Below, piece by piece: positions 23,008 through 53,959 of a stretch of 64,000 nucleotides of DNA. The position numbers and the translations under genes were made by a program. The DNA lies in contig NZ_DATCMV010000179.1 in assembly GCF_036563125.1 (NCBI RefSeq), positions 1,418 to 65,417 of the forward strand, read 5' to 3'. Position 1 is the stretch's first letter; every line of letters begins with the position of its first letter. Below the pieces are notes generated by a model, which was given only the letters and a program-made list of their open reading frames with translations, was not told where the DNA came from and made no database searches. This DNA comes from Microbulbifer sp. GTDB taxonomy: Bacteria > Pseudomonadota > Gammaproteobacteria > Pseudomonadales > Cellvibrionaceae.

Positions 23008-23024
23008 CGAAATCCAGATCCAAA

Positions 23025-23761: not shown

Positions 23762-23762
23762 C

Positions 23763-24409: not shown

Positions 24410-24617
24410 TTATCGAGCTTTTTCCTCTTTGCCTTTGAATTTTAAGAAAAAATTCTTATCCAACTCTGTGCGCGAGTTTTGAAGCGCCTCACATATCCCC
24501 CCGTATTGCTTGCAATACAATCTCCTCCGCTGAGTACTCATCTCCGACGTAGGTCGGGTTTTTATGGTCGGTGATTAATTGACCAGTTAAGGGTTGGGGT
24601 TCGAGGTAAAAAGGGAT

Positions 24618-31419: not shown

Positions 31420-31509
31420 TTTAATTTTTAACCAAAAAACGACCGCTAAGGTCAAAACCAGGCAAAGCGGAAAAAGCCGCGGACCCGAGAAAGAAAACCA
31501 AGAGGGCAA

Positions 31510-33454: not shown

Positions 33455-33463
33455 TGAGCGTTT

Positions 33464-34837
33464 GTGAATAATTTTCATCAACAAAAACAGGCACTGACAG
33501 CGAAGCAGGAAGTGGTTCGCCAGCAGTTGGCCGCGCTCGAAAGCGAGTACGGTCAGGTTGATGGCAAGCTGGATGCGCTGCGTCGGGATGAGGCCAAGCA
33601 CCAGTTGCTGGACGAAATTTCCGATCGCCTCGGTAAGCTCGAAGAGGCCGGTGCCGGCGATCTGTTCTGGGCGGAGCATTACAGACAGGATGCCTCAAAA
33701 GCGCTGATTCACCGCCTGCAGAAAACCGTCAGTATCTATAACGCCAATCTCGATCTGTTGCACGAGCGCAAGCGCAAGCTGCAGGATCAGATGGAAGACT
33801 GCCGCGATGATCTGTTCGATCTGGATGCAGAGTTCCGGGAGATTCGCCAGGCAGAAGAGGATGTTCACTACGAGTACGAAGTCTCGCGCGAGCTGGGTGC
33901 TTCCGCTTTCCGTGACGCAATCATGCCGTGGAATCGTGGCGAAGACGATCGCCGATTCCGCATCAGTGTGCTGCTGTGCTTGCTGCTGGCCTTCTTCCTC
34001 GGCTTTGGTATCCATGTATGGCAGCTGCCTGAGCCGGATGCTGACGAGGTGGTAGAGGTGCCCGAGCGCCTGGCAAAGCTAGTACTGGCGAAAAAACTCA
34101 AGCCCAAGCCGCCTGAGCCGGTAGCGCAGAAGCCCGAGGAGAAAAAGAAAGAGCCTGAGAAGCCCAAGCAGGAAGTCGCCAAGCAGGAGGCCAAGGCTTC
34201 GAATGAGAAAAAATCCCAGGTGCGCGAGAAGGTGGAGCGTACCGGTGTTCTGGCGTTCAAGGACAATTTCCAGGATCTGATTCAGGACGATCTGGATAAC
34301 CGCCTAGGCCCGCAGACACAGCTGAGTACCGCTGGTAAGCAGGAAAGTCGCAGTCAGCGCTCACTTATCGCGTCGGCGGCAAAATCCGGCTCCGATGGTA
34401 TAAACACCGCAGCGCTCAGCCGTAACGCTGGTGGAGTGGGTACCGCCCTGGATGGTGTGAGCTTCTCGCGGGTGTCCAGTGGAATCGGTACCGAGGGCGA
34501 CTTCGCTGGTGAAGACCGGCCGCTCAGCGATGGTATGGGCCCTTCCCGTACCGACGAGGAGATCCAGATTGTGTTCGACCGCTACAAGTCGGCGCTCTAC
34601 CGGATTTACAATCGCGAACTGCGCAACAATCCGGCGCTGCAGGGCAAGATGGTGCTGCGTATTACCATCAAGCCTGATGGCTCCGTATCACTGGCCAAGG
34701 TTGAGAGCAGTGATATGGATTCTCCGGCGCTCAATGCACAGATCATAGAGCGGGTGGAGCGGTTCAACTTTGGCGAGAAGGCCGGGGTGCCGACCATCAC
34801 TATCCTGTATCCGATCGATTTCTTGCCAGCCGCGTAA
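33464..34837 (+). CDS. TonB-like protein with AgmX/PglI-type C-terminal domain (GltG-like) and an N-terminal cytoplasmic coiled coil
   Basis: About 150 aa heptad-rich N-terminus; single TM helix; Pro/Lys/Glu-rich linker; C-terminal RTDEEIQIVFDRYK..LYRIYNRELR.NP.LQGK.V...I.PDG.V...F.P (TonB_C-like). Start codon uncertain. Confidence 0.8.
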   Translation: MNNFHQQKQALTAKQEVVRQQLAALESEYGQVDGKLDALRRDEAKHQLLDEISDRLGKLEEAGAGDLFWAEHYRQDASKALIHRLQKTVSIYNANLDLLHERKRKLQDQMEDCRDDLFDLDAEFREIRQAEEDVHYEYEVSRELGASAFRDAIMPWNRGEDDRRFRISVLLCLLLAFFLGFGIHVWQLPEPDADEVVEVPERLAKLVLAKKLKPKPPEPVAQKPEEKKKEPEKPKQEVAKQEAKASNEKKSQVREKVERTGVLAFKDNFQDLIQDDLDNRLGPQTQLSTAGKQESRSQRSLIASAAKSGSDGINTAALSRNAGGVGTALDGVSFSRVSSGIGTEGDFAGEDRPLSDGMGPSRTDEEIQIVFDRYKSALYRIYNRELRNNPALQGKMVLRITIKPDGSVSLAKVESSDMDSPALNAQIIERVERFNFGEKAGVPTITILYPIDFLPAA

Positions 34838-34852: not shown

Positions 34853-34890
34853 GCAACCGCTCGGGCATTAGCCCGGGCGGTTGCGCTTTT
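34853..34890 (+). terminator. Rho-independent terminator ending the motor operon
   Basis: GCAACCGCTCGGGC-ATTA-GCCCGGGCGGTTGC followed by GCTTTT. Confidence 0.8.
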
Positions 34891-34980: not shown

Positions 34981-35095
34981 GCCCTGTTCCCTTCATATCG
35001 TTAGAGTCGCATCACCGGGCAGTGTGTGTACGGTTTAGGTGCTCAAGAGCTTCGTATCCGGAGCTTTAAACCCGAATTGCGGCAGAAAACTAACA

Positions 35096-38000
35096 ATGAT
35101 GTCAGATGTGAACGGACTGAATTCCTCGAAGGCAAACCTGGAAGGTCTTGCAAAGCGCTCCGAATTTAAGGCGCTCAGAAAATTGGGCAATCTGTTGCTC
35201 GCAGTTTTCTTGTCCTTCGCATTTGCGCAGATGGCGGTGGCGGCTTCATTCAAGACCACCGACTTCGCCACCGATTCCACCCCACCCGGCAGCCCGGGGA
35301 ACCCCAGTGGTTGCTTGATTGATGGCCCCTACGCCACCACCACCGATGGCTCTAACCGCACCATGGCGCCCGCGGATCAGCTGTCCATCGACCGTTCCTG
35401 TACCGTCAAGAATTTCTCCTGTGATGTACCGCTGGAATCAACGCTGAACTTCGCCGGCGTCCCCTCAGGTACCCTGATTATTTTTGATAACGTCTGTTTC
35501 GGCGGTAACTTCGCCTGTGCCAACGTTGAAGGCAAGGCATCGGTATGGGCGGTGAACGGTTCTGATTTCAGCACCGTGCGTGAAGGCTGTCAGAACCTGG
35601 TTATCCCGGTTGAAAAAATCGAGAAGCAGGCCACCGATTTGGCGGGTAGCCCGATTACTTCGGTATCTATTGGGGTGCCATTTGTCTACACGCTGGACAT
35701 CCCGGTGTTGTTTGACCCGGTGACCGGTACCGTACTGCAGGATTCCGGCTCTCTGAACAACATCCAGGCCATCACCATCCAGGATGACCTGTCTGCAGCC
35801 GCTCTCGGGGTCGACCTGGATCTGCTGGATGTCCGCCTGTTCTATGAGGACACCAGTGGCGCGACCACGCCCATGTCGCCCGCTGCGTATTCCTACAGCA
35901 ACAGCGGTAACCCAAATTCACCGGGCGTATTGACGTTCCAGATAAACGATCCATCAATCCTGCCAGCTGGTGCGCAGATTCATATCGAGCTGGAAGTGGT
36001 ACTGGACAATACGGCGCTCAACAGCATCGGCAAGTCCTTTACCAACACCGCAACCTGGGAGTTTGGTCGCTATATCGATGGCACCTTCTATGATCCTCTG
36101 CCCGGTGAAAACGGCGTTGCCCAGCTGTTGAGCATTTCCGCGCCGGATCTGCTGCTGACAAAAACCACCGATGCAACCGCAATCAACTTTGCCGATACCC
36201 CCACTTACACCATCAACGTGCAGAACGTGGGTGGATCGCCGGCGTGGAATATCGAGATTGAGGATCTGTTGCCGGTGGGCATGCGGGAGTCCGATCCGGT
36301 ATTGCAGAGTGTGACCATGGGAGGAGTCACCCTCACCGAGGGGACGCACTTCACGGCCAGTTATAACTCCGGCGCCGGCGCTGGCGCCGGTTTGCTGACC
36401 ATCAAACTGCTCAATGATGCAGGCGCTCTCGCCCCCAATGCGGTGCTGGAAATCATCTACACCAGCCAGCTGGATGATGTTTCGTCTAGCACAGCCCCGG
36501 TGGATGGGGACGTGCTGAGCAACGTGGCGGCAGCGACGGCCTGGTACAACGATCTCTCTACCAATAATGACCGCATTGAATACACCGGGGTGCGTTCCGA
36601 TGGTACCCCGGGTACCGATGACGAGCAGGATGTGGCAACAGTTACCGCGGCGCTCTCCGGTTACTACTTCGAAAAAACCGTCAGCAATGTGACTACCGGC
36701 CAGTCGCCGACAGCATCGGCCGCGCCGGGTGATCGGTTGCGTTACCGCCTGCGCCTGTTCAATCTCGATGAAAACATCTACAACGTCACCATTACCGATC
36801 AGCTGGATGCGAGCAGCTTTGATTTTTCCTCCGCTCAGGTAGTTGCAGGAACCTGCCCGACCGGGGCGAGCTGTACCTTCAATGCAGCCGGTTTACTGAC
36901 CGTCACTGGTGATCTGGATGTGGTGCCGGGTTCGGCGTTGTCCTCCATTGCGGTGGAATTCGAGGTGAATACCCTGAGCTCGCTGAACACCAATGATGTG
37001 GTGAGCAACCAGGCGCGCATGGACGCCCAGGATGCGGATACCAGCGGTACTGCTTTCTTTGCCCTGAGTGATGATCCCAATGATGCATATGGTGTGGTCA
37101 ACCAGGCGGACCCTCAGGGGAATCCGATCAATCCCACCGACATCGTAATTATTTCACCGGGAGCCCTGGATAAGCAGAATCCCTCCGGCATTACCCAGGT
37201 CGCGATCGGTGAGCTTTTTGAATACACGATTCTGATTCCGGCAACCACCGTACCAGCGCCGCTTTACGATGTGCAGGTGAGCGACCAGCTGCCTTCCAAT
37301 CTCGATCTGGTCAGCGCCAATGCCCTCGTCAATGGCACCAGCTATACCCTGAGCAATACCGGTAGCGCCAACAGTCTGGTACTGGTGGAGCCAATTACCG
37401 GTCTGGATATTCCCGCGAACCAGCAGGCGGAAGTCACCGTGCAGGTGCGCCTGAAGAACCGCATGGAAAACCAGGATACCGTGCAGTTCACCAATACCGC
37501 CAGCTACACCTACAGCCGCACCCAGGGCGGTGCTCAGAGCAGTGGCGCGGGGACGGCCGATACTACTGCCCCGCTGACCGTGGTCGAGCCAAATCTGGTC
37601 GCAACTAGCAGCGTGGTGAATAGTTCGCGCGGCGGCAGCACTGCCTATGGCGGCGATGTGCTGCAGTACACCGTGGCATTGACCAACAACGGTACTTCCA
37701 CGGCTTACGACCTCTCGATCATCAATACCCTTAGCGCCGGGCAGACACTGGTGCCCGGAAGTGCCCAGATCACACTGGGTGGCATTGCTTCTGCGGTGGC
37801 GCCGGGAGTCAGCGGCGATGTGCTGTCCTGGGGCCGGAGTAGCGGACAGGAGCTGGATATTCCCGTTGGGGGCACCCTGACGCTCGTTTACCAGGTGGAA
37901 GTGAGCGGTGTCGATGGCGGTGACCTGACCAACAGTATCGCGGCCGACTGGACTTCATTGGACGGCTCTGACGTCGAAGAGCGCACTGGCAACGATGCAC

Positions 38001-41000
38001 CGGATACCAGTGCTCTGAACAATTACTTTATTGCCGATGAACTGGCCATGCCGTCCGTCGACAACGCGGCCATCGTCAAGACCGTCATCAGCGACACCTG
38101 GAACGGTGACATTACCCCCGCCGCGCAAACCACCGCCCGCGCCGGTGACACCATTACCTACCAGCTGACCCTCACGTTGCCGGAAGGGTTGAATAGCAAT
38201 GTGGTCGTAACGGATTTACTCGATCCCGGGCTGGCGTTTGTGGATGTGGTGAGCATCAATGGCGCAGCCACCGCGCCCTACGCCGCAGCGGGTGTCTTCT
38301 CATACTCCGATATTCCAGCGGCGAATGTGCCAGCTGCAGACCAGACCGGCACCCTGAGCTGGAATCTGGGCGATGTAACCAACGCGCCAGATCAGAATCC
38401 GGCGAACGATGAGTTCGTGATCGTATATCGCGCGCGGGTGCAGCACGGTGCGGGCGACAACCCCGCGGCCACGCCGACCTCGACGGTACTCAACAACCAG
38501 GCCACCCTGGGTTACACCTATGCCTCCGGTGCAGCGGCGACCACAGCGCCCGCGACCGCGAGTGTCGAAGTGCTGCAACCGCAGATTAACGAGTTGACCA
38601 AGACCGGTGTGGTATTGCCGGCAAGCGGTGCCATTGTCGGCGACGGCCAGTCCGCAGCGACAGCCTATCTGGTGGATATTGCCAGCAACAGCATGCAGTT
38701 TTCCCTGCAGGCCTGTAACGTTGGCGACGCGCCTGCGTACGGGGTCACGCTGCATGACGACCTGCCGGCTGAACTCGACGAGGGCACGCTTAACAATGTC
38801 GCGGTGGCCATTGATGGCGCTGCGCTGGGTGCGGCGGACTTCAGTTACACCGCCCCCGCTGCGCGCGATGGCGAGATGCAGTTCACCTTGAATGTCGCGC
38901 TGGCCCCGAGCAGCTGCGTCACTATCGACTACAACATCGGTTTTTACACCGACATTGCCCCCAACCAGGTCTGGTCCAACGCCGCCTCCGTCGAGGCCTA
39001 TTGGTCCCGCGAGTCTCTGGACGCAGCGGACGCGCGTGAATATGTCGCGATCAACCCGGTGACCTCCGACAGCGTGTGGATGACCAATAACTTCCAGGTC
39101 GAGGCACCGAGCAAAACCGTTTCCAAAACCCAGGCCACCATCGGTGAAGAAGTGGTGTACACCATCACCGTGCCCGGCACTCCGGTGAATGGCGTCCTGA
39201 GCGGGGTAACGGTAACTGACACCCTGAGTCAGGCTCTGCAGTACGTCGATGCCACTGTGCAACTCAACGGTGCCCCGCTTGCTGTGACCACCACGCAAAG
39301 CGGCCAGGACCTGAGCTGGGCGATCGGCGATATTCCCGCGGGGCAGCAGGCGGTGATCACCGTCACCACCTGGGTGGCGAATACCCAGAACGTCAGCGCC
39401 AGTGCCACTCCGGTGGGCAATGTCGCGGCCTACACCTACCAGGCCGGCGGCGTGGCGGTGGATGGCGGTAGCAGCGCGCCGGCTGAATTTACTGTGGTGG
39501 AACCGGACCTGTCGGTGGTGAAAGCCGTGGCCAACCTGAGCGATCCAGGTCAGCCAGCGGCCACCGGCGATGTGTTGGAGTACACACTCACCATCACCAA
39601 CAATGGTGATGCGACTGCCTTCGATACCAACATTGCGGATGTGCTGCCGGCAGAGCTGAGTTATGTGGATGGCTCCAGCAGCGCACAAATCGATGGCAGC
39701 GCACTTGTCGGGTTCAACGCGACCCCCTCGATCAGCGGCAACACCCTGACCTGGGGTCGCGACAATGGCGATAACTCCGTGGTGATACCCGCGGGCAGCG
39801 TGCTGGTGCTCACTTACCAGACCGATGTGAACACCATTACCGCTGCGGATATCGTCAACAGCGCACTGGTCGACTGGACCTCGCTGTCCGGCACTTATAC
39901 CGGTGACCGCGAGCGTACCGGTGCCGGCTGTCCCAGCGTGACGCCACCCAATATTTATTGCAGCGGCGACACCAGCGGTTTCGGTGTGGATTACGACATC
40001 GACCTGCAGAAAACCCGGCAGACAGACAGCTGGAACGATGATGGCAACCTGCGGGTGGGCGATACCGTCGATTACCAGCTGAAACTTGATCTGGTGGAAG
40101 GCACCCACAATGGTCTGGTGCTGGAAGATACGCTGCCCCAGGGAATGGCATTTGTCGGCGTGTTGAGTGCAGACTTCTTCGGCACTGCGGCCACCACGCC
40201 GCCCGCGCCGTCGGTAAGCGCGGACCAGCGCACCATTACCTGGGATCTGGGCACCGTCACCAACCCCGTGGACGGCGACGATACCAACGATTTCGTCACC
40301 ATCACCTACCGCGCGCGGGTGCTGAATGGTGATGCACTGGCCCAGCAGCCCACTACGCAGGCACTGAATAACGTCGTGACCCTGAACTACCTGGTGGGCA
40401 GTGCGCCAGGCGCACCGCTGACCACCGGTGCCACCGTCAATGCGCTGCAGCCATTTTTGACGGTGAGCAAGTCTGCCGTAACCGCCATCAATGGCGATAC
40501 CGTAATCCAGTCTGGTGAGGCCGCGACTTACACCGTCGATATCACAAATACCGGAAACGCACCGGCCTACGATGTAGTACTGGAAGATGTGTTGCCTGTA
40601 GGACTGCGCAACGCCGGCGTCAGCATGCAGAGTGCGACCCTGGTTAACGCAGGCACCAGCATCACCCTGACACCGACGTTTGATCCGGCTACTGGCACGG
40701 TTACCTGGGATTTCGACCCGGCTGCCAACGCGGCGATTCCCGCCGGTGACACGCTGCGTGTGGTGTATCAGGTAACCGGCGATGCCGATCTCGGTGCGGG
40801 CCTGACCCTGACCAACAGCGCACAGGTCACCCGTTACTTCTCCTTCGACAACGACCAGGTACCGGCCAATAGCGCCGTGGACTGGCGTGAGGACTACGGC
40901 CCTTCGGCGGTTGCGACGTTCAACTTGACTACGCCGGTACCCGGCGTGCTGAGCAAAGCCACTACCCAGTCCACCGTAGCCATCGGCGAACAGCTGACCT

Positions 41001-44000
41001 ACACCCTCACGGTGCCTGAAGTGCCCGCGGATGTTGCGCTGCAAGACGTGCGCATCATGGATAACCTCTCCGCAACCGGCGTGGACCTCGCCTTTGTTTC
41101 GGCGACAGTTGTCGGTGGTAATGCGCTCACTAACAGCGGCACCGCCGATAATCTGGTGCTTTCCGACACCAGTGGCGGCCTTGATATTCCGGCCGGTGCA
41201 CAGGTCGAGGTACAGGTGACGGTTGAGGTTTTGAATACCGCCAACAACCAGAACCGTACCGATCCTTTTGTTAACCGTGCCTGGTACGACTACAGCAACG
41301 GTGTTACCCGCCTCGGAGACGATCCGGCAACCGGCGGCGACGCCAATGCGGTGACCATCGTGCACGCGGAACTGGTGGTGGAAAAAACCGGACCGGCGAC
41401 CATCAAGGTGGGCACCCCGGAAAACTTCACCCTCACGGTGCTGAACAACAGTAGTGCCAGTGCGTGGAATGTCACCCTGACCGACTGGCTGCCGAATCCG
41501 GATCCCGGTGGTCTGTGCGATGTGCAGCCGGTTATTCAGTCGGCGGCAATCCAGAAGGCGGGCGGTGCCAGTATTGCCCTGAACGCCAGTGATTTTGCGG
41601 TGAGCTTTGTTGCCGGCACGCCCACCTGCGAATTCTCCGCAACCCTGCAGAGCGATGACGAGCTGGCCCCGGGCGATCAGCTGATTGTTGTTTATCAGGT
41701 GGCGCTGGATGGCGATAACATCAATGACACTACGCTCACCAATATTGCCGGTGCTACCCAGTGGTTCAGTGCCAGCGCGGCCACGAGCGAGCGTTTTGCC
41801 TACCAGCGCACGCTGACCGATGGCACCCCGGGTGTGGTCGATCACGAGGACAGTCACACCTTCACGGTGCAGTCGGCCATCCTCGAGATTCGCAAGTCGG
41901 TGCTCAATGTCACCACCGGACAGTCCGGTGCCAACGCCAGCCCCGGTGATCAACTGCGCTACAGCATCGAGATTCAGAACGTCAGCGACGTAGCGCTGGA
42001 TGCATTCGTGCTGCGCGACGAACTGGATCGGCTGAATGCCAAGGCGATGTTCCAGACCGGTTCGCTGCGGGATGTATCCGTGCCGGCTGGCGCAACCGCC
42101 AGTGTCATTGGCGACGGCGGTGCACAGGGTAGCGGACTGCTGGAAGTGACCGGTCTCGCCATCGCCAAAGCGGGTGACGCGGGTGACACCATCACCGTGG
42201 TGTTCGATGTGGATCTGGTGCCGGTGATCACCAGCGGCACCGTGGTGCTCAACCAGGCCCAGCTCAGCATGAGTGATGTGGTGTTCGCTTCCAGCGACGA
42301 TCCGCTGGTGGGCGGCATTGAGGACCCGACGCAAACGCTGATCCATTCCGCGCCGTGGCTGAAGATACAGAAAACCTCGCAGGATCTGACCGGTGATGCC
42401 GATATGCTGGCCCCGGGCGACAGCCTGCGCTACACGCTGACGGTGGAAAATACCGGCAGTGAAGACGCCATCAATACCGTGCTGCGCGATCTGGTGCCCG
42501 GCAACACCACCTATGTGGCGAACTCCACCACATTGAATGGTGTGCAGATTGCGGATGTGAGTGGTTCCACCGCGCTTGCCAGTGGTATCAGCATCCAGAC
42601 TCCGGGTGCAGAAAGCGGCTTTGTCGGCGCTGCCGCCGAGGGCGCGGCACCGGTGGTGATTACCTTCGATGTTGTGATCAACGATGTAAACGACGGTACC
42701 CTCATTTCCAACCAGGGCTTTGCCAATGGTGACGGCGCCGGCAGTGGCGCATTCGCTGAGCGTCCCTCCGACGATCCGGCGACCAGCGCGGTGGACGATC
42801 CGACGATCGATATCGTCGGTGATGTACCGCTGCTGGTGGTTACCAAAACCGTGGAACTCGCGGTGGACAATATGACCGTGGGTATCGTGGATCCGGAAGA
42901 CGTGCTGCGTTACACCATCTCCGTAACCAACATGGGCGGTAAGGATGCCAGCGAAGCTCGCCTGGTCGACCTGGTCCCGGCGGACACCACCTATGTGGCC
43001 AACAGCACCAAGCTGAACGGCCTGGATGTGGCCGATGCCGCTGGTGGTTCGCCGCTGGCCGGTGGACTTGCGATCAGCAGTGATGATCTGACCCCGCCAT
43101 TGCCCGCGACCGGCGAGGGTGTGATCACCAGCGCTCAAACCGCGACCATCGTGTTTGATGTGATGGTCAACGCCGACACCGCACGCGGCACCATCATCAG
43201 CAACCAGGGCAGCGTGTCCAGTGTGGAACTGCCGCTCACCCTCACCGATGCCGATGGCAATAGCAGCAACGGCGCTCAACCTACCGAGGTTGTGGTGGGT
43301 GATGCGCAGCAGCTGTCCATTACCAAGGAAGTGGCCGTAGTGGGCGGCGGCGATGCGGAATCCGGCAAGGTGTTGGAATACCTGGTGCGGGTTACCAATA
43401 TCAGTAGTGTGCCGGCCAGCCTTATCCTTATTCAGGATGACCTGCTTACTGCCGGTGACGGTGTACTCACTTATGTGGCTGATTCCGCACGGGTAAACGG
43501 TCAAGCGGGAGGTGTGAGCGTCAATGGATCGCTGATTACCGTTGACTACAGCACCAATTACGGCGATCTGCAGCCGGGAGAATTCCTGACCTTGCGCTTC
43601 CAGGCGCGGCTCGGTCCGAATCTCGCCATTGGCACCACCGTGGTGAACACCGCACAGGTGCAGTGGAACGACCCGGCGATGTATAACGAGGCCAGCGTTT
43701 CCATCGATATCGGCGGTACCCCGGGCATCGCCAACCTGAGCGGTTACCTGTGGCACGATGTGGATTTCAGCGAAACTGCGGACACCAATGAGCTACTGCT
43801 CAGCAACTGGACCGTACAGCTGTACTTCAACAATGCGCTGCTGGAAACCGCACAGAGCGATGCCAACGGCTACTTCCAGTTCGGTGGTCTGGTGCCGAAT
43901 ATGGATGGCGCAAACATGGCCGGCGCCAGCTACGAGCTGCGCTACCTGGCGCCGAACGCTGTGGGCACCACGGCCTCCCTCGGCACCGCCAGCTCTGACT

Positions 44001-45649
44001 ACACCAATGGTCCGCAGCAGATCCGCGATATCTATATCGCCTCCGGCAGCAACCCGCAGAACCTGAATCTGCCGATTACACCAAACGGGGTGATCTACGA
44101 TTCGGTACTGCGCGCGCCGGTCAACGGGGCCCGTGTACGCTTGCTGGGTGCGTCCAGTGGCCAGCCGCTGCCGGACAGCTGTTTTGATGATCCCAAGCAG
44201 CAGAACCAGGTCACCCTCACCGGCGGCTTCTACAAGTTCGATGTGAACTTCAGCAGTGCGGCCTGTGCGGTAAATGCGGATTACCTGATCGAAGTGGACG
44301 TGCCGAGCGCAGATTACGTCTCCGGCCCGTCGCAGATCATTCCGCCGCAGACTGGCGTGGATACCGGCAGTTTCGATGTGGCCGCGTGCCTTGGCAGTGC
44401 CGCGGACAGGATCCCGGGCACGCCGGACCACTGTGAGGTGCAGCTGTCAGTAGCGCCGCCCTCCATTGACCTGGATGCGCGCAGCAGCGAAACCGATTAC
44501 TACCTGCGTGTAAACCTCGATGACAGCAACCAGCCGGGCAGCAGCCAGCTGTTCAACAACCACATTGCGCTGGACCCGCAACTGGAAGGCGCGCTCGCGC
44601 TGACCAAAACTGCGGCCATGTTGAATGTGACCCGCAGCCAGCTGGTGCCCTACACAATCACCTTCAGCAACTCGCTGCCGGTGCCGCTCACGGATCTGCA
44701 GCTGGTGGATTACTTCCCCGCGGGCTTCAAGTATGTGGCCGGTTCCGCGAACCTGGATGGCGAACCGGTAGAGCCGGTGGTAAACGGCCTGCAACTGCAG
44801 TGGCCGCACCTGCGCGCCGAGGCGGAGCAGACCCACAGCATGAAACTGCTGCTGGTGGTGGGCTCCGGTGTGGGCGAGGGCGAGTACATCAACCGCGCGC
44901 GCATGTTCAACGAACTCTCCGGCCAGCAGACGTCCGGCGAGGCGTCGGCCACCGTGCGCGTGGTACCGGACCCGACCTTCGACTGTACCGATGTGATCGG
45001 CAAGGTGTTCGACGATAAAAACCTGAACGGTTACCAGGACGCGGGTGAGGGCGGCGTGCCGGGAGCGCGTGTGGTCACCGCCAACGGTCTCAAGGCCACC
45101 GCCGATGCACACGGTCGTTTCCATATCACCTGTGCGGCGGTGCCTAACCCGGATCGCGGTTCCAACTTCGTGCTGAAACTGGACGACCGCAGCCTGCCGA
45201 GCGGCTACCGCCTGACCACGGAAAACCCGCGGGTGCAGCGCGCGACCCGAGGCAAGATGCTGGAGTTCAATTTCGGTACCAGCCTGCACCGTGTCGTGCG
45301 TCTGGATCTGGCGGAAGCGGTCTTCGAACCCGGTACCAGCGAGTTGCGTCCGCAGTGGCATTCGCGCACCGAACTCTTACTGGAGCGACTGCAGGAGGCA
45401 CCGTCGGTGCTGCGCCTGTCCTACCTGGCGGAAAACGAAGATCCGTCGCTGGTAGACGAGCGCCTTGCGACGATCAAGGCCCGCATCGCCGAGGACTGGG
45501 CGGCACTGAACTGCTGCTACCCGCTCAATATCGAAACCGAAATTTTCTGGCGCCGTGGCGCGCCGCCCGAGCGTGGCAATGTGCTGGACGGGCTCAAACG
45601 CAGTGTTAACCGCATGATCGGAAGTGATGATCAGGGAGGCGCCCGGTGA
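35096..45649 (+). CDS. Giant (~3500 aa) secreted DUF11/isopeptide-repeat adhesin-like protein with SdrD-B-like and degenerate OmpA-like C-terminal domains
   Basis: Extended signal peptide ending AQMAVA; about 18 repeats of the form L..(T/S)K...GD.L.YT(L/I).V.N.G...A.D....D.LP; two SdrD-B-like segments (SGYLWHDVD..., IGKVFDDKNLNGYQDAGEGGVPGARV); C-terminal VFEPGTSELRPQW. Confidence 0.85.
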   Translation: MMSDVNGLNSSKANLEGLAKRSEFKALRKLGNLLLAVFLSFAFAQMAVAASFKTTDFATDSTPPGSPGNPSGCLIDGPYATTTDGSNRTMAPADQLSIDRSCTVKNFSCDVPLESTLNFAGVPSGTLIIFDNVCFGGNFACANVEGKASVWAVNGSDFSTVREGCQNLVIPVEKIEKQATDLAGSPITSVSIGVPFVYTLDIPVLFDPVTGTVLQDSGSLNNIQAITIQDDLSAAALGVDLDLLDVRLFYEDTSGATTPMSPAAYSYSNSGNPNSPGVLTFQINDPSILPAGAQIHIELEVVLDNTALNSIGKSFTNTATWEFGRYIDGTFYDPLPGENGVAQLLSISAPDLLLTKTTDATAINFADTPTYTINVQNVGGSPAWNIEIEDLLPVGMRESDPVLQSVTMGGVTLTEGTHFTASYNSGAGAGAGLLTIKLLNDAGALAPNAVLEIIYTSQLDDVSSSTAPVDGDVLSNVAAATAWYNDLSTNNDRIEYTGVRSDGTPGTDDEQDVATVTAALSGYYFEKTVSNVTTGQSPTASAAPGDRLRYRLRLFNLDENIYNVTITDQLDASSFDFSSAQVVAGTCPTGASCTFNAAGLLTVTGDLDVVPGSALSSIAVEFEVNTLSSLNTNDVVSNQARMDAQDADTSGTAFFALSDDPNDAYGVVNQADPQGNPINPTDIVIISPGALDKQNPSGITQVAIGELFEYTILIPATTVPAPLYDVQVSDQLPSNLDLVSANALVNGTSYTLSNTGSANSLVLVEPITGLDIPANQQAEVTVQVRLKNRMENQDTVQFTNTASYTYSRTQGGAQSSGAGTADTTAPLTVVEPNLVATSSVVNSSRGGSTAYGGDVLQYTVALTNNGTSTAYDLSIINTLSAGQTLVPGSAQITLGGIASAVAPGVSGDVLSWGRSSGQELDIPVGGTLTLVYQVEVSGVDGGDLTNSIAADWTSLDGSDVEERTGNDAPDTSALNNYFIADELAMPSVDNAAIVKTVISDTWNGDITPAAQTTARAGDTITYQLTLTLPEGLNSNVVVTDLLDPGLAFVDVVSINGAATAPYAAAGVFSYSDIPAANVPAADQTGTLSWNLGDVTNAPDQNPANDEFVIVYRARVQHGAGDNPAATPTSTVLNNQATLGYTYASGAAATTAPATASVEVLQPQINELTKTGVVLPASGAIVGDGQSAATAYLVDIASNSMQFSLQACNVGDAPAYGVTLHDDLPAELDEGTLNNVAVAIDGAALGAADFSYTAPAARDGEMQFTLNVALAPSSCVTIDYNIGFYTDIAPNQVWSNAASVEAYWSRESLDAADAREYVAINPVTSDSVWMTNNFQVEAPSKTVSKTQATIGEEVVYTITVPGTPVNGVLSGVTVTDTLSQALQYVDATVQLNGAPLAVTTTQSGQDLSWAIGDIPAGQQAVITVTTWVANTQNVSASATPVGNVAAYTYQAGGVAVDGGSSAPAEFTVVEPDLSVVKAVANLSDPGQPAATGDVLEYTLTITNNGDATAFDTNIADVLPAELSYVDGSSSAQIDGSALVGFNATPSISGNTLTWGRDNGDNSVVIPAGSVLVLTYQTDVNTITAADIVNSALVDWTSLSGTYTGDRERTGAGCPSVTPPNIYCSGDTSGFGVDYDIDLQKTRQTDSWNDDGNLRVGDTVDYQLKLDLVEGTHNGLVLEDTLPQGMAFVGVLSADFFGTAATTPPAPSVSADQRTITWDLGTVTNPVDGDDTNDFVTITYRARVLNGDALAQQPTTQALNNVVTLNYLVGSAPGAPLTTGATVNALQPFLTVSKSAVTAINGDTVIQSGEAATYTVDITNTGNAPAYDVVLEDVLPVGLRNAGVSMQSATLVNAGTSITLTPTFDPATGTVTWDFDPAANAAIPAGDTLRVVYQVTGDADLGAGLTLTNSAQVTRYFSFDNDQVPANSAVDWREDYGPSAVATFNLTTPVPGVLSKATTQSTVAIGEQLTYTLTVPEVPADVALQDVRIMDNLSATGVDLAFVSATVVGGNALTNSGTADNLVLSDTSGGLDIPAGAQVEVQVTVEVLNTANNQNRTDPFVNRAWYDYSNGVTRLGDDPATGGDANAVTIVHAELVVEKTGPATIKVGTPENFTLTVLNNSSASAWNVTLTDWLPNPDPGGLCDVQPVIQSAAIQKAGGASIALNASDFAVSFVAGTPTCEFSATLQSDDELAPGDQLIVVYQVALDGDNINDTTLTNIAGATQWFSASAATSERFAYQRTLTDGTPGVVDHEDSHTFTVQSAILEIRKSVLNVTTGQSGANASPGDQLRYSIEIQNVSDVALDAFVLRDELDRLNAKAMFQTGSLRDVSVPAGATASVIGDGGAQGSGLLEVTGLAIAKAGDAGDTITVVFDVDLVPVITSGTVVLNQAQLSMSDVVFASSDDPLVGGIEDPTQTLIHSAPWLKIQKTSQDLTGDADMLAPGDSLRYTLTVENTGSEDAINTVLRDLVPGNTTYVANSTTLNGVQIADVSGSTALASGISIQTPGAESGFVGAAAEGAAPVVITFDVVINDVNDGTLISNQGFANGDGAGSGAFAERPSDDPATSAVDDPTIDIVGDVPLLVVTKTVELAVDNMTVGIVDPEDVLRYTISVTNMGGKDASEARLVDLVPADTTYVANSTKLNGLDVADAAGGSPLAGGLAISSDDLTPPLPATGEGVITSAQTATIVFDVMVNADTARGTIISNQGSVSSVELPLTLTDADGNSSNGAQPTEVVVGDAQQLSITKEVAVVGGGDAESGKVLEYLVRVTNISSVPASLILIQDDLLTAGDGVLTYVADSARVNGQAGGVSVNGSLITVDYSTNYGDLQPGEFLTLRFQARLGPNLAIGTTVVNTAQVQWNDPAMYNEASVSIDIGGTPGIANLSGYLWHDVDFSETADTNELLLSNWTVQLYFNNALLETAQSDANGYFQFGGLVPNMDGANMAGASYELRYLAPNAVGTTASLGTASSDYTNGPQQIRDIYIASGSNPQNLNLPITPNGVIYDSVLRAPVNGARVRLLGASSGQPLPDSCFDDPKQQNQVTLTGGFYKFDVNFSSAACAVNADYLIEVDVPSADYVSGPSQIIPPQTGVDTGSFDVAACLGSAADRIPGTPDHCEVQLSVAPPSIDLDARSSETDYYLRVNLDDSNQPGSSQLFNNHIALDPQLEGALALTKTAAMLNVTRSQLVPYTITFSNSLPVPLTDLQLVDYFPAGFKYVAGSANLDGEPVEPVVNGLQLQWPHLRAEAEQTHSMKLLLVVGSGVGEGEYINRARMFNELSGQQTSGEASATVRVVPDPTFDCTDVIGKVFDDKNLNGYQDAGEGGVPGARVVTANGLKATADAHGRFHITCAAVPNPDRGSNFVLKLDDRSLPSGYRLTTENPRVQRATRGKMLEFNFGTSLHRVVRLDLAEAVFEPGTSELRPQWHSRTELLLERLQEAPSVLRLSYLAENEDPSLVDERLATIKARIAEDWAALNCCYPLNIETEIFWRRGAPPERGNVLDGLKRSVNRMIGSDDQGGAR

Positions 45650-48600
45650 TGTTTCGCCCGTCTAAAAATAAATTAGCAATCGTAATGGTCGCGCTGGCGA
45701 GTGCTTCGGCGCTCGCCCAGGAAGAAAGCCAGGGCGATATTTCCTGGTGGCAAAAAATCCCCGGCCTCTCGCCGCAGATCGAAACTACCGGCGATTACAC
45801 CGACAAACCACTGGGCAGCAACACCGAAACCACCCTGATCCCAACGGCCGGCCAGCTGTGGGTACAGGATGCGGAATCGTTTGTCTCCCCGGAGGAAGCG
45901 GTGCTGGAAAACAATGCGCTGCCGCCGCTGCTATACCGCGAGGTGGGCGATGATATTGATCCGACACTGATCGAACAGCTGCGGGAAAGGCTCGCGGCCC
46001 TGAGCGGCGCCCACGAGCTGCAGCTGATTTTCACCGGTCACACCGACAGCGATCCGCTGAGCGAGGACCAGCAAGCGGAGTACGCGGATAAAGCCGCGTT
46101 TACCGAGGCGCGCGCCAAGTTGGTGGCGGAGTACTTCCAGACTGCGCTGGAACTGCCGGATGAGGCGATTGTGGTAGCGGGCCGCGGTGACGGCGAACCG
46201 CTGACCGAAAACATCACCGAAAAAGGTCGCGAACTGAACCGCCGGGTGGAACTGACGCTGCGCTATTTCGAGCAGGATCAGCAAGCCCGCGACGCCCAGC
46301 GCCGCGCTGAGGCGCTGCAGCTCAACCGGGTCAAGGTCTGCCGCCAGGAAACCGTGTGTAAGCTGCGCTACAGCGCGGGCACGGACCAGCGCGCGCGCCT
46401 GAAAAACCTGGTGTCGCCGCTGCGTCTGCAGCCGGGGCAGGTGGACCTGCCGGCGCCATTTGTGCGCCGTATCCTGGAGGTCCGCAACACCCTGCTGGAA
46501 AAACCCAATCTCACCATTCACTTCGTCGGTCACACCGATGGCGCGCCGCTGCCGGAAGGTCCGGCGGAGCTGTATGACGATCAGATGGCACTGTCGCGCG
46601 CGGAAGCGCGACGGGTGGCACTGGCAGTTGCGGATCAGCTGAACCTGCCGGCTTATATGGTTACCAGTAGCGGTAAAGGCGCGAGCCAGCCCATCGCGGC
46701 CAACGACACCGCCAAAGGCCGTTCCCTGAACCGCCGCGTGGAAGTGGAGTTCTGGTACGACGATTTGCTGGAAACCGCCGCCGACGGCGTGCAGGCGTGT
46801 CCGGAATCCGCTGTGGCGGAAACTATCACCATCGCCCACGAATCGCCCACCGGCGACGTGCCGCCGATTTTCCTGAATGACGGCGAGCCGCAAATTTCCG
46901 GTTCACAGCTGGCGCAGATGCAGCGCCTGATGGAAGAGGTGGCGGGCAAGCAGAACGTGCGCCTGAGTTTTGTCGGCTACAGCGATAACGAGCGCATGGA
47001 GCGCCGCGAAGCCATGGTCTACGGCGACGATGTGGGGCTGTCGTCTGCACGTGCGAAAAAGACCATGCAAGTGGTGCAGCAGCAGCTCGGCCTGGACGAT
47101 ACCCAGGTGGAGTTTGAGGGGCGCGGTTATGTAGAGTCCAAGGATGTGGTGCAGACCGGGTTTATCCACATGGACGGCGCGCGCGTGGAAGTGCAGGTGC
47201 TGTACGACGAGCTGGCGGTGCTGGCGGAGCAGGACCGGCTGGAAATCGAGCGGCTGCAGCAGGAGGCCCAGGCCCACAACCCCTACGCCCTCAACCTGAT
47301 GCGCATCACCGTGGACGGTGCCCCGGAATACGATCCGTACAAGAATTCCGCAGACCTGCAGCGCTGTACCGACGTAGCCCTGGAAAATGCCAATATCCAG
47401 TTCCGCTTTGACAACCAGTCGATGCAACCGCGACTCAACGTCACTGCCTTCCCCAGCACCATCCGCTACGCGGACGATCCGGAAACGGAGCTGGTGGAGA
47501 GCCGCGTGCAGTTCAAGCGTTACACCAACTACCCCTCGTTTATCACCCGCGCGGAAGTGCGTATTTTCGAGGAAGAGCAATCCCTGCGCGACACACCGCT
47601 GGCGGTGGTCACCCTGGACCAGAACGGCGAGGGCAGCTGGGAGGCGGAATTCGACAGCTTCCAGGCGCCACTGAAAAAGCTGAAATACGTGTTGCGGGTA
47701 TACGACTGGAAACAGCGTTTCGATGAAACCCGTCCGCAGACCCTGTGGCTTGTGGATAACTTCGAACCGCAGTTACAGGAAGACACCACCGAAAAAGAAC
47801 TGTTGGTGGGCTATGGCGAAAACCGCCTGTCCGAGCAGCATATTCCCGTGAGCGGCAATGCGGTGCTGGTGAACGGTGCGGATATTCCGGCAAACCACAG
47901 TGTGTGGCTGGCGGGCCGCGAAATTCCCGTGAGCAGCAACGGTGATTTCGTTGCCGAGGAAATTTTTGCCAAGGGCCTGCACACCGTGGAAGTGGCGGTA
48001 CTGGACGAGCAGGGCAACGGTGAACTGTTCCTGCGGGATCTGGAGTTCAATCGCGACGACTGGTTCAGTGTGGGGATCGCCGATGTCACCATCGCCCGCG
48101 ATGACACCAATGGCCCCGCGGCGCTGGTTACCGGTGATCAGACCCACTACGACAATTCCGCGAGCTACGACGGTCGCCTGGCGTTTTACACCAGCGGCAG
48201 CTTTGGTGATGGCTGGCGCCTGTCCGCCAGCGCGGACACCGAAGAAGGGCCCATCGACGACCTGTTCAGCAACTTTATGGAAAAAACGCCGGACGCCCTG
48301 TTCCGCCGTCTGGACAGCGATCTCTATTACCCGACCTTTGGCGACGATTCCACGGTGGTGGAAGATGCCCCGACCTCCGGCAAGTTTTTCATCAAACTGG
48401 AAAACTACGACGATTACGGCCTGTGGGGTAACTTCAAGGCGTCCTATACCGACAACGAACTGGCGCATATCGACCGCGCGCTGTACGGGGCCAATTTCCA
48501 TTTCGAGACCGACGATGTCACCGACTTCGGCGACAAGCGTTTCGAAATAGACGCCTTCAGTGCGGAGCCCGGCACCATCGCCGGTCGCGATGAGTATCTG

Positions 48601-50763
48601 GGCACCGGTGGCTCCCTCTATTACCTGCGCCACCAGGATATCCTCACCGGCTCCGAGCGCCTGCGTGTGGAAGTGCGGGACAAGAACTCCGGCCTGGTGC
48701 TGGGAGTGAAAAACCTCACCCCGGTGATCGATTACGATGTGGATTACATCCAGGGGCGCGTGTTGCTGAACCGCCCGCTGTCCGCCATCGCCAACGACAA
48801 CCTGATCGTGCAGGACGGCTCCTACAACGGCAATCCACAGTACCTGGTGGCCCGCTACGAATACACCCCGGGCTTTGACGATCTCGACACCCTGGCCCTC
48901 GGTGGTCGCGCCCAGTACTGGGCCGGTGAACATGTGCGTATCGGTGTGAGTGCGAGCCAGCAGGATGAGGAAGACAACGAATCGTCACTCAACGGCGTCG
49001 ATCTGACGCTGCGCAAGAGCGCCGGTACCTGGATGAAAGTGGAAGTGGCGGAAAGCCAGGGCAATACCCTGGAAAGCCTGTCTTCCCTGGACGGCGGTTA
49101 CAGCTTTAACCAGGACAATCCGATCGATCCGAATGCCAAGGCCGGTGCCAACAAGGTTGAAGCCGCGATCCAGATGGGGGATTTCTTCGAGGGCGCGCGC
49201 GGTTCCATGTCCGTCTATGCGCAGCAGCGGGATGCGGGCTTCTCCGCACCGGGCCAGCTGGCGACCTACGATACCGAGCAGTACGGCGCGGTGGTTAACC
49301 TGCCCATCGGCGAGCGTTTCGATGTGGGCCTGAAAATGGACACCAAGGAACAGCAGCAGGGCCTGCAGACCTCCGCCACCGATGTGGAGCTGGGCTACCG
49401 CCTGAGCGAGCGCTGGCGCCTCGCCGCCGCCGCCCGCTCCGACTCCCGCGAGGATATGTCACCGGTGGTGCCGGTCACCCAGAAACAGGGCGATCGTACC
49501 GATGTAGCAATCCAGGCCGGTTACGATTCCGGTGCCAACTGGAACGCGTTCGGTTTCGTGCAGCGTACCGCAGAGTTGTCCGGTAACCGCGATGAAAACA
49601 ATCGCGTCGGATTTGGCGGAGCCTACCGCGTCAGCGATCGCCTGACCGTGGACAGCGAGCTTTCCGGTGGCGACACCGGCAACGCGGCGCGTGTCGGCAC
49701 CGACTTCCTGGTGACCGACCGCACCAACCTGTATCTGAATTACACCCTCGACAACGAGCGCACCGATACCGGTGTGCGCGCGCGCAAGGGCAATCTGAAC
49801 AGTGGCTTCCGCAGTCGCTTCTCCGATACCACCAGTATTTACGGCGAAGAGCGCTATACCCACGGCGATGTATCCACCGGCCTTACCCACGCACTTGGCG
49901 TCGATCTGGCACCCAGTGACACCTGGAATTACGGTACGTCCCTTGAGGCGGGTACCCTCGAGGACCCGCGCACCGGTGCCGAAACCGAGCGCCGCGCCGT
50001 GGGCGCCAGCATGGGCTTCAACGACGGCGACCTGCGCGTGTCGAGCGCGGTGGAATACCGCGTCGACAATATGCAGACGCTGACCGACCCGGAAACTGTA
50101 CTCGAAAATGAGCGCAAAACCTGGCTGCTGAAAAATGCCCTGAGCTTCCAGATCAGCCCGGATTGGCGCTTGGTTGGCAAGCTCAATTATTCCGACAGCC
50201 AGAGTTCCGCCGGGCAGTTCTACGACGGCAAATACACCGAGGGCGTGATGGGGTATGCCTACCGTCCGGTGGAGAACGACCGCTGGAATACACTGCTGAA
50301 GTACACCTACTTCTACAATGTGCCCACCACCGACCAGGTGCTGGTGACCTCCAGCAGCGCCAGCAGTGCGGTGGAGTTTGTGCAGAAGAGTCATATCTTC
50401 TCGGTGGACACCAACTATGACCTGACCCAGCGCTGGACGCTCGGCGCCAAGTACGCCTACCGCCTGGGACAGTTGAGCATGGAGCGTGAAAACCCCGAGT
50501 TCTTTGACAGTAACGCGCACCTGTATGTGATGCGTGCCGACTGGCACTTCGTGAATAAATGGGATTTGTTGGTGGAGGGCCGCGTGCTCGACCTGCCGGA
50601 AGCGGGCGACCGCAGAAGCGGCGCGCTGCTGGCGCTGTATCGCCAGATGGGAAATCACTTCAAGGCGGGTATCGGTTATAACTTTACCGATTTCTCCGAC
50701 GACCTGACGGATCTGGATTACGACAGCCAGGGTGTCTTCATTAACATGGTCGGCAAATTTTAA
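45649..50763 (+). CDS. Outer-membrane protein: three OmpA-like peptidoglycan-binding domains plus a very large C-terminal beta-barrel
   Basis: Signal peptide; GHTD...GRGD.EP...NRRVEL, GHTD...GKG..QP...NRRVEV and GYSD... OmpA-like motifs; about 900 aa of amphipathic strands ending VFINMVGKF (terminal Phe); TGATG coupling to the adhesin. Confidence 0.82.
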   Translation: MFRPSKNKLAIVMVALASASALAQEESQGDISWWQKIPGLSPQIETTGDYTDKPLGSNTETTLIPTAGQLWVQDAESFVSPEEAVLENNALPPLLYREVGDDIDPTLIEQLRERLAALSGAHELQLIFTGHTDSDPLSEDQQAEYADKAAFTEARAKLVAEYFQTALELPDEAIVVAGRGDGEPLTENITEKGRELNRRVELTLRYFEQDQQARDAQRRAEALQLNRVKVCRQETVCKLRYSAGTDQRARLKNLVSPLRLQPGQVDLPAPFVRRILEVRNTLLEKPNLTIHFVGHTDGAPLPEGPAELYDDQMALSRAEARRVALAVADQLNLPAYMVTSSGKGASQPIAANDTAKGRSLNRRVEVEFWYDDLLETAADGVQACPESAVAETITIAHESPTGDVPPIFLNDGEPQISGSQLAQMQRLMEEVAGKQNVRLSFVGYSDNERMERREAMVYGDDVGLSSARAKKTMQVVQQQLGLDDTQVEFEGRGYVESKDVVQTGFIHMDGARVEVQVLYDELAVLAEQDRLEIERLQQEAQAHNPYALNLMRITVDGAPEYDPYKNSADLQRCTDVALENANIQFRFDNQSMQPRLNVTAFPSTIRYADDPETELVESRVQFKRYTNYPSFITRAEVRIFEEEQSLRDTPLAVVTLDQNGEGSWEAEFDSFQAPLKKLKYVLRVYDWKQRFDETRPQTLWLVDNFEPQLQEDTTEKELLVGYGENRLSEQHIPVSGNAVLVNGADIPANHSVWLAGREIPVSSNGDFVAEEIFAKGLHTVEVAVLDEQGNGELFLRDLEFNRDDWFSVGIADVTIARDDTNGPAALVTGDQTHYDNSASYDGRLAFYTSGSFGDGWRLSASADTEEGPIDDLFSNFMEKTPDALFRRLDSDLYYPTFGDDSTVVEDAPTSGKFFIKLENYDDYGLWGNFKASYTDNELAHIDRALYGANFHFETDDVTDFGDKRFEIDAFSAEPGTIAGRDEYLGTGGSLYYLRHQDILTGSERLRVEVRDKNSGLVLGVKNLTPVIDYDVDYIQGRVLLNRPLSAIANDNLIVQDGSYNGNPQYLVARYEYTPGFDDLDTLALGGRAQYWAGEHVRIGVSASQQDEEDNESSLNGVDLTLRKSAGTWMKVEVAESQGNTLESLSSLDGGYSFNQDNPIDPNAKAGANKVEAAIQMGDFFEGARGSMSVYAQQRDAGFSAPGQLATYDTEQYGAVVNLPIGERFDVGLKMDTKEQQQGLQTSATDVELGYRLSERWRLAAAARSDSREDMSPVVPVTQKQGDRTDVAIQAGYDSGANWNAFGFVQRTAELSGNRDENNRVGFGGAYRVSDRLTVDSELSGGDTGNAARVGTDFLVTDRTNLYLNYTLDNERTDTGVRARKGNLNSGFRSRFSDTTSIYGEERYTHGDVSTGLTHALGVDLAPSDTWNYGTSLEAGTLEDPRTGAETERRAVGASMGFNDGDLRVSSAVEYRVDNMQTLTDPETVLENERKTWLLKNALSFQISPDWRLVGKLNYSDSQSSAGQFYDGKYTEGVMGYAYRPVENDRWNTLLKYTYFYNVPTTDQVLVTSSSASSAVEFVQKSHIFSVDTNYDLTQRWTLGAKYAYRLGQLSMERENPEFFDSNAHLYVMRADWHFVNKWDLLVEGRVLDLPEAGDRRSGALLALYRQMGNHFKAGIGYNFTDFSDDLTDLDYDSQGVFINMVGKF

Positions 50764-51062
50764 CCTTCCCTTTCGTGTGAAATTCGGCTGGATACGGCCA
50801 CTGCAGATGCCCCCTCGCGGGTTTCTGCGGTGGCCGCCGCCGCGGCCAACTGATCTCCCAATCCCTTCCGGCGCAAAGCCGCGCCCTTTTCTCGACATTC
50901 CCCCAACTGCGCCACACTGCCGCTTGAGCCCGATTTACAGTGCGCGTAATTCTTACGAATAGGCAAGAAGTGCAGCGGAACGTACGTTGAAAGCTTCCTG
51001 CGCTTGCTCTACTTTGTTATGCGTCCAGGTGTCATTAAAAAAACAGGCGAGCGGAGAAGCCA

Positions 51063-53947: not shown

Positions 53948-53959
53948 GCGGGGCCAGTG

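Follow-up and report, generated by a model that had tools for sequence, protein, structure and literature searches.

Luciano et al. (2011) described a seven-gene core complex, comprising aglRQS together with gltC, gltD, gltE and gltG, in Gammaproteobacteria, one Betaproteobacterium, Geobacter and Fibrobacter, and left its function open (PMC3169522). Among outer-membrane proteins, SprA with its 36 strands is the largest known single-chain barrel as of 2026 (bioRxiv 10.64898/2026.03.07.710327), and contact maps led Solan et al. (2021) to predict a superfamily of 38- and 40-strand outer-membrane barrels, families 002 and 003 (PMC8346858). Isopeptide bonds are present in CLIPPER domains, which often contain disulfides as well (PMC12617251). 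Here, we analysed a 64,000-nucleotide stretch of Microbulbifer sp. (RefSeq assembly GCF_036563125.1, contig NZ_DATCMV010000179.1, positions 1,418 to 65,417 of the forward strand; hereafter the window), which encodes a 1705-residue outer-membrane protein, a giant fibre and a motor operon. We found that the 1705-residue protein belongs to a large family of giant barrels that lacks annotation, and that in the outer membrane it is the partner of an Agl/Glt-type core complex and a giant fibre. The explanation that we favour, with a probability of roughly 60%, is that it would serve the fibre as a conduit and socket that is anchored to the wall and coupled to an Agl/Glt-type motor.

The barrel gene starts with a GTG codon that overlaps the stop codon of the upstream fibre gene (GTGA), and its product carries a signal peptide with cleavage between ...ALASASALA and QEE and ends in ...INMVGKF. 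Three stretches of the protein matched Pfam family PF00691 (E = 1.6e-19; 70.5 bits against a cut-off of 27.2), and the GH(T/S)D ... LS..RA pattern, read from the translation, is kept in each. This is the pattern of peptidoglycan-binding OmpA-like domains, and the roles of its residues are established. NCBIfam and PDB sequence searches with the protein returned OmpA-like domains only, and beyond the OmpA stretches Pfam gave a weak generic OMP_b-brl match alone (aa 1187-1371). The protein contains four cysteines in total, which are invariant or nearly so among relatives (...VCR.ETVCK..., QACPE and LQRCTD); this suggests two periplasmic disulfides, aa 232/238 and 385/574, one of which possibly ties the OmpA region to the beta-sandwich module that follows it.

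The AlphaFold2 model of aa 540-1705, for which 56 aligned sequences were supplied, has a mean predicted local distance difference test score (pLDDT) of 68.6 and a predicted template-modelling score (pTM) of 0.47. In this model, residues ~583-786 form beta-sandwich domains (pLDDT 70-90), and an unbroken up-down series of strands runs from about aa 807 to the C-terminus. From the predicted secondary structure we counted 40 transmembrane strands, a number that does not include the final strand of the sandwich module or three others within an insert of low confidence. Every second strand connection is short, mostly 2-5 residues, as expected of periplasmic turns, and if strand 1 starts on the periplasmic side, the end of the chain, a terminal Phe, is predicted to be periplasmic too. 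A preliminary description, made from the sequence alone, had told of a 1705-residue protein in which three OmpA-like domains, proposed to anchor it to the wall, precede a strand-rich region of ~900 residues that reaches a terminal Phe and exceeds a 22-strand receptor barrel. The open reading frame (ORF; 45646-50763) and its three PF00691 stretches were found as described, the strand-rich region corresponds to the predicted meander at ~807-1705, and the protein does carry wall-binding domains of the kind proposed for anchoring. The AlphaFold check of strand number suggested in that description gave about 40 strands rather than the 22 of a standard receptor barrel.

Closure of the barrel was assessed by co-variation among 323 non-identical relatives (effective number about 220), which were aligned with phmmer and subjected to mean-field direct-coupling analysis on strand columns only. 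Neighbouring barrel strands coupled with z above 2 in about 80% of pairs, and the first and last strands (aa 807-822 with 1693-1704) ranked second of 903 non-neighbouring pairs, with z 5.7. The top non-neighbouring pair, at z 10.7 the strongest coupling of the analysis, consists of two strands that both belong to the insert separating barrel strands 7 and 8, hereafter loop 4. When the analysis was repeated on 287 sequences with gap-free ends, the closing pair again ranked second of 903 (z 4.7); under a stricter no-gap filter, which removed two thirds of the sequences and thus lowered power, closure gave z 2.4. None of the two-barrel divisions showed both closing signals in the co-variation, and the long connections of the barrel, which are just loops 2 and 4 plus two others, give no supported split. 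Mutual information with average product correction was also tried for contacts and was dropped as too noisy to read. The topology with the best support is one barrel of about 40 strands, and on the combined prediction and co-variation we regard it as probable. By the usual barrel geometry, the C-alpha diameter would be near 75-80 Å for 40 strands, compared with about 70 Å for 36.

We examined the gene neighbourhood in 80 loci whose barrel regions are 54-93% identical, from Gamma- and Betaproteobacteria, Desulfobacterota (including Geobacteraceae), Nitrospirota, Acidobacteriota and one metagenome-assembled genome labelled Alphaproteobacteria. The C-terminal 500 residues of the fibre (53-93% identical) are encoded directly before the barrel gene in 78 of the 80, that is, in every locus with enough upstream DNA. 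A complete motor block, consisting of genes for three tetratricopeptide repeat (TPR) proteins, ExbB, two ExbD proteins and a GltG-like protein, directly follows the barrel gene in 18 loci of the groups outside the Gamma- and Betaproteobacteria, and parts of it lie at contig ends in 7 more. The window differs in order, with the motor block before the fibre gene; two other gammaproteobacterial contigs show the same order, including a small 97-residue ORF, and one of them is the contig of locus L040, which carries the barrel gene. In Microbulbifer sediminum, where two loci (L012 and L013) lie about 16 kb apart on one contig, a second fibre gene begins after the first barrel gene, so that this genome appears to hold two tandem fibre-barrel pairs.

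To estimate the size of the family, the barrel region was searched against 1.84 billion cluster representatives (50% clustering), which gave 3244 representatives at E<=0.001 and 937 at E<1e-30. The barrel is C-terminal and aligned over its full length in nearly all full-length relatives. The sandwich module was detectable in 124 of the best 150 relatives and OmpA-like domains in 40. Fusions account for 31 of these 150: they are long proteins of about 2000-6900 residues in which a fibre with the conserved C-terminal module, optional OmpA-like domains, the sandwich module and the barrel follow one another collinearly. Nineteen of the 31 have no OmpA-like domains and are therefore not simple read-through artefacts. 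More than 4491 homologues of the barrel protein are labelled only 'OmpA family' or 'MotB'. Many distant relatives (P0147, P0157, P0166, P0180 and others) are proteins of 1150-1400 residues with a sandwich module and a barrel, and with neither OmpA-like domains nor a Pfam family. A candidate TonB box in the N-terminal segment (...NTETTLIPTAG...) was dropped, since the first 99 residues have no counterpart in distant relatives.

The fusions place an N-terminal passenger before a C-terminal barrel, which is the order of type V secretion, and they raise the alternative that the barrel is a wall-bolted anchor or an autotransporter-like domain for self-export. The fibre would then be exported with the help of the machinery that assembles beta-barrels (BAM), as in type V, and the motor would serve regulation, envelope integrity or assembly. 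OmpA-like anchoring is known for an Acinetobacter CLIPPER adhesin (PMC12617251), and in the window a terminator parts the motor operon from the fibre-barrel operon, both in keeping with this explanation. However, the forty predicted strands far exceed what an anchor or a pore for an unfolded chain would need, type V barrels having 12 or 16, and Pfam gave no Autotransporter, ShlB/TpsB or POTRA match. Moreover, the motor block stays adjacent to the fibre and barrel genes despite the change in gene order across phyla, which argues for one functional unit. We consider this alternative unlikely.

The motor operon of the window encodes, in order, TPR proteins of 693, 1124 and 199 residues, a small ORF, a MotA/ExbB/TolQ-like protein, two ExbD/TolR-like proteins and a TonB-like protein, with one Pfam match to PF01618 and two to PF02472. 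The TonB-like protein matched NF033768, the AgmX/PglI (GltG/GltJ) C-terminal domain, at 66.2 bits against a cut-off of 40, and the NCBI names of its Microbulbifer homologues accord with this assignment; the gliding_GltG model scored 59 bits, below its equivalog cut-off. A weak GltE match was obtained among the three TPR proteins. Judged by sequence, these genes are the seven-gene core complex of Luciano et al. (2011) (PMC3169522). The small 102-residue ORF is probably the additional gene of the core complex that those authors described as having no homologues in Myxococcales (PMC3169522), and a 97-residue ORF occupies the same place in two other gammaproteobacterial contigs (L083 and L084). 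Our literature survey returned nothing specific on a system combining DUF11, OmpA and ExbD, nor later work on the gammaproteobacterial core complex.

The TonB-like protein and the ExbB/ExbD homologues of the cluster would also suit an energised importer or giant porin, an analogue of TonB-dependent receptors for large substrates such as polysaccharides, with the sandwich module as a plug. Microbulbifer species degrade polysaccharides. A Foldseek search of the barrel model against the PDB returned MtrB, the 30-strand SlpA, LptD, TonB-dependent receptors and SusC, of which the last three would fit an importer; yet all of these are generic barrel matches with TM-scores <=0.31 and are uninformative on strand number. 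No Plug or TonB_dep_Rec match was found with Pfam, the cluster contains no substrate-binding or degradative genes, and an importer leaves unexplained the universal pairing and frequent fusion with the fibre. We therefore regard an importer as extremely improbable.

The partner fibre carries a Sec signal peptide, and its building blocks are pilin-like CnaA/CnaB/CLIPPER domains; Pfam detected at least 11 CLIPPER/DUF11 repeats in it, alongside pilin-like sandwich domains. AlphaFold2 modelled its last 560 residues as sandwich domains (pLDDT 82), followed by a small beta-alpha-beta-alpha-beta domain and a disordered tail. Foldseek matched this end to the Gram-positive pilins BcpA, SpaD and RrgB and to a CLIPPER domain (9IFR; TM-score 0.76). 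An OmpA-like domain had been suspected in the last ~90 residues of the fibre; a PDB profile search with them was empty, and the Foldseek matches were dominated by the sandwich domains. Three cysteine pairs in the last 560 residues are kept in 98-100% of 62 relatives, and the remaining cysteines of the fibre mostly fall in nearby pairs too. A disulfide-forming protein exported by Sec is expected to fold in the periplasm, and a fibre folded there would fit the need for a very wide passage through the outer membrane.

Conservation within the barrel region is highest at three places. Over 323 relatives, the most conserved 30-residue window is aa 983-1012 in loop 4, at 3.29 bits per column compared with a mean of 2.32, and aa 1016-1045 in the same loop ranks fifth; the other top windows are loop 2 (aa 886-915, ~nt 48301-48390) and the last hairpin with the last loop (aa 1659-1688, ~nt 50620-50709). 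These stretches (loop 2, aa 983-1045 at ~nt 48592-48780, and the last hairpin and loop) cluster near the seam between the first and last strands, where they may form a functional site or gate. Loop 4 is placed outside the cell by strand parity. A 47-residue string at 48640-48780 to which the preliminary description had drawn attention lies within loop 4, and its exact position was confirmed as aa 999-1045. Its consensus in the family is GSERV.IEVRD...L.PG.DYDIDY.QGRI.L..PL., in which G1002, S1003, D1029, Y1030, G1037 and L1041 are essentially invariant, and by its conservation in sequence the motif is a hallmark of the barrel family.

This motif had been likened to a pattern in SprA/Sov, and the protein had been proposed as a distant SprA-like translocon. 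The pattern itself is genuine: SprA of F. johnsoniae (6H3I_A) carries GSVVVTAAGRVLVEGIDYSVDYQLGRVQIL at 700-729, and a query consisting of the pattern only matched this single protein in the PDB. The barrel protein and SprA have GSE. and IDY.VDY..GRV in common, with differences from the pattern at two positions (L for V and V for G); the spacer between the halves is 17 residues in the barrel protein versus 6 in SprA, 11 longer. The real 67-residue motif segment gave no PDB match at E<=10. When artificially compressed to the spacing of SprA, a biased query, it reached SprA at a non-significant E=0.28, below fibronectin FN3 repeats. A loop-4 profile built from 67 diverse relatives likewise gave no match to SprA at E<=10, and the best of its weak matches were cadherin-23 repeats (E 0.04-1.5). 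The comparison with SprA family models proposed in the preliminary description was run with Pfam and NCBIfam (including SprA_N and surface_SprA), and no SprA model gave a match at E<=1 with the whole protein or at E<=10 with the motif segment. A full-length family profile against the PDB gave OmpA-type chains only, among the matches listed, and SprA was not among the best 50 Foldseek PDB matches of the barrel model. Among the scanned genes of the window (16.7-58 kb), none encodes a core component of a type IX secretion system (T9SS; GldK/L/M/N, PorV, PorU) or carries a cargo signal of the C-terminal domain (CTD) type, and the fibre has no Por_Secre_tail.

These data bear on the proposal that the protein is a true but very distant SprA/Sov homologue, in which the loop-4 motif would be an ancestral remnant and the whole a proteobacterial cousin of the T9SS with a TolQR-type motor replacing GldLM. 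In its favour, SprA is the sole PDB protein matched by the pattern, the most conserved element of the family matches GSE.V ... L..G.DY.(V/I)DY..GR(V/I), and both giant barrels are linked to giant adhesins and proton motors. However, an alignment requires an 11-residue gap, and its ungapped core scores about 24 bits by a hand estimate, or E about 0.2 even for a single pairwise comparison; the real segment and the unbiased profile miss SprA, the weak profile matches going to cadherin repeats instead; family models do not reach it and the best 50 Foldseek matches do not include it; and T9SS genes and CTD-type signals are missing from the scanned genes. The likeness to SprA seems to reside in a short, gapped strand motif of a generic beta-sandwich type, for which homology is not established. 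The barrel protein is not a detectable SprA relative, its strands number about 40 rather than 36, and we hold descent from SprA to be quite improbable. What stands of the earlier proposal of an adhesin translocon driven by a TolQR-type motor is the genetic tie to a giant adhesin and to such a motor, including a GltG-type TonB-like protein; the role as translocon or socket would be a reasonable functional analogy.

Our favoured explanation, a wall-anchored conduit and socket coupled to the motor, can be set out as follows. A conserved two-gene module of a giant CLIPPER/DUF11 fibre and a giant barrel travels with the Agl/Glt-type core complex, the barrel protein being the outer-membrane component of the module. 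The fibre would be exported by Sec, fold and form its disulfides in the periplasm, and then pass through, or sit in, the wide barrel lumen with its C-terminal end kept periplasmic; the chain order of the fusions, fibre-(OmpA)-sandwich-barrel, demands such a topology if the fibre is outside. The OmpA-like domains would bolt the assembly to the cell wall for load bearing, and the motor, through its GltG-like arm, would power the export of the fibre, its exposure or its tensioning. Loop 6 of the Omp85 family suggests, by analogy, that the conserved seam loops may serve as a gate or cap. Such a device would resemble SprA to some extent in its working, in that a giant barrel with a nearby proton motor serves a folded surface adhesin. 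A bolder proposal, which we regard as possible yet speculative, is that the barrel is the outer-membrane translocon of an undescribed secretion and display pathway driven by the proton-motive force, effectively a new type of secretion system present in at least five phylum-level groups. An ancestral Agl/Glt motor would in that case drive a folded fibre, cross-linked by disulfides and isopeptide bonds, through a single-chain barrel larger than any other known, and this would have been its original job before gliding in Myxococcus.

Several points weigh against the conduit-and-socket explanation. Surface exposure of the fibre, its passage through the lumen and its coupling to the motor are features that we infer from synteny, fusions and domain content, and a different route to the surface may be open to the fibre, in which case the barrel would be only an anchor. 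The AlphaFold2 model is of moderate confidence (pLDDT 68.6, pTM 0.47), and the strand count comes from its secondary-structure string and from co-variation rather than from coordinates. In the re-run with gap-free ends, strand 1 paired with strand 18 of the list scores almost as high as the closing pair, a pairing that looks spurious. The sandwich module and loop 4 may each be placed as a plug, a cap or a periplasmic domain. Finally, no TonB-box-like segment is conserved, the N-terminal 99 residues being conserved only in close relatives.

The role of the core complex outside gliding bacteria has been open since 2011, and its fixed partnership with a fibre and a barrel offers a testable answer, namely that what the motor acts on is a surface fibre seated in a barrel that is anchored to the wall. 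A single-chain barrel of 40 strands would exceed SprA (36) as the largest known, and it raises the questions of how BAM assembles it and how so wide a pore is sealed. Since a large multi-phylum family stands under the labels 'OmpA family' or 'MotB', a major envelope machine is misdescribed in many genomes. Naturally fused proteins would provide simpler constructs for structural work. The present analysis contributes the number of strands and a test of closure, the place and standing of the motif, a direct comparison with SprA and the natural fusions.

The features of the locus are collected in Table 1. The 26-kb cluster is flanked on one side by MoaA-, MoaB/Mog-type, MoaC- and MoaE-like genes (21294-24242) and on the other by molybdopterin oxidoreductase, XdhC and MobA-like genes (50987-55631), and it looks as if the motor-fibre-barrel cluster had been inserted into a molybdoenzyme locus. 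A 180-residue ORF without a Pfam family (24594-25136, + strand) precedes the first TPR gene, and ORFs of 175-194 residues stand at the same position in L083 and L084; the conserved cluster may thus start one gene earlier, at this ORF. In L084, a gene for a GGDEF/EAL protein (1-1588) lies directly upstream of the cluster, which may hint at control of the system by cyclic di-GMP.

Table 1. Features of the motor-fibre-barrel cluster (positions within the window; aa, residues of the 1705-residue protein unless a protein length is given)
Feature	Position	Strand	Details
Motor operon, Agl/Glt-type core complex	25139..34837	+	Pfam, NF033768, gene order shared with other genomes
Small secreted ORF, 102 aa	31111-31419	+	Signal peptide; between third TPR gene and ExbB-like gene
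GltG-type TonB-like protein, 457 aa	33464-34837	+	NF033768 AgmX/PglI C-terminal domain
Strong terminator-like hairpin, 14-bp stem	34853..34884	+	Separates motor operon from fibre-barrel operon
Partner fibre gene, 3536-aa Sec-exported protein	35039..45649	+	Pfam, signal peptide, AlphaFold2/Foldseek
Gene for 1705-aa outer-membrane protein	45646..50763	+	Stop included; signal peptide aa 1-24
Three OmpA_C-like peptidoglycan-binding domains	45943..47280	+	aa ~100-205, 264-368, ~430-545
Conserved beta-sandwich (immunoglobulin-like) module directly before barrel	47281..48012	+	aa 546-789; AlphaFold2 strands, pLDDT 70-90
Predicted single beta-barrel, about 40 transmembrane strands	48064..50760	+	aa 807-1705, ends in C-terminal Phe
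106-residue insertion, extracellular loop 4, between barrel strands 7 and 8	48571..48888	+	aa 976-1081; low-pLDDT AlphaFold2 insert
Flagged motif ILTGSERLRVEVRDKNSGLVLGVKNLTPVIDYDVDYIQGRVLLNRPL within loop 4	48640..48780	+	aa 999-1045
Terminator-like hairpin after barrel gene	50870..50885	+	Followed by unrelated molybdoenzyme genes

Compared with known systems, the barrel protein has the OmpA_C-like domain in common with the OmpA family, in three copies, but the order is inverted, with the OmpA domains N-terminal to the barrel, and the 8-strand OmpA barrel is absent. TonB-dependent transporters combine 22 strands with an N-terminal Plug and a TonB box, whereas the barrel protein has about 40 predicted strands and no Plug match. 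As in type V secretion, a Sec-exported passenger is associated with a dedicated barrel, the two being parts of one chain (31 of 150 relatives) or products of adjacent genes, and the C-terminal barrel ends in an aromatic residue. In contrast to the 12 or 16 strands of type V, however, 40 are predicted here, without a POTRA domain or a match to a type V family; periplasmic modules of the OmpA-like and sandwich kinds separate the passenger from the barrel, the system has its own proton motor, and the passenger is probably folded and disulfide-bonded. SprA/Sov (PDB 6H3I) resembles the barrel protein in being a very large single-chain barrel tied to giant surface adhesins and a proton-driven motor, and in the short motif IDY.VDY..GRV. 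It differs in having 36 strands rather than about 40 and GldLM rather than a motor of the TolQR/ExbBD type; here, moreover, the cargo has no CTD signal, no T9SS genes lie nearby among the scanned genes, and OmpA-like domains are fused to the barrel.

The superfamily of Solan et al. (2021) was likewise predicted from co-variation as a single closed 40-strand barrel, larger than any solved, and the same number was reached independently here; no function, partner genes or motor link is given in the text consulted, whereas the barrel described here has such a context (PMC8346858). The family described here may well be the one those authors predicted. The CLIPPER/DUF11 adhesin B9T28_05395 of Acinetobacter silvestris (PDB 9IFR; PMC12617251) has the same stalk domain and also OmpA-like wall anchoring, but here the anchor domains reside on a separate giant barrel protein and a motor operon is added. 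Lastly, the Agl-Glt system of Myxococcus xanthus and the core complex share the gene set of the window, namely a TolQ-like protein, two TolR-like proteins, a GltG-type TonB-like protein and three TPR proteins, and in both an outer-membrane platform would handle an adhesin (PMC3169522). The carriers listed by Luciano et al. include relatives of Cellvibrionales and Geobacter (PMC3169522), as do the loci analysed here. The scanned genes of the window contain neither the small barrels of the GltA/B/H/K type nor a vWA adhesin of the CglB type; in their place, there is one predicted 40-strand barrel with three OmpA-like domains, together with a giant CLIPPER fibre.

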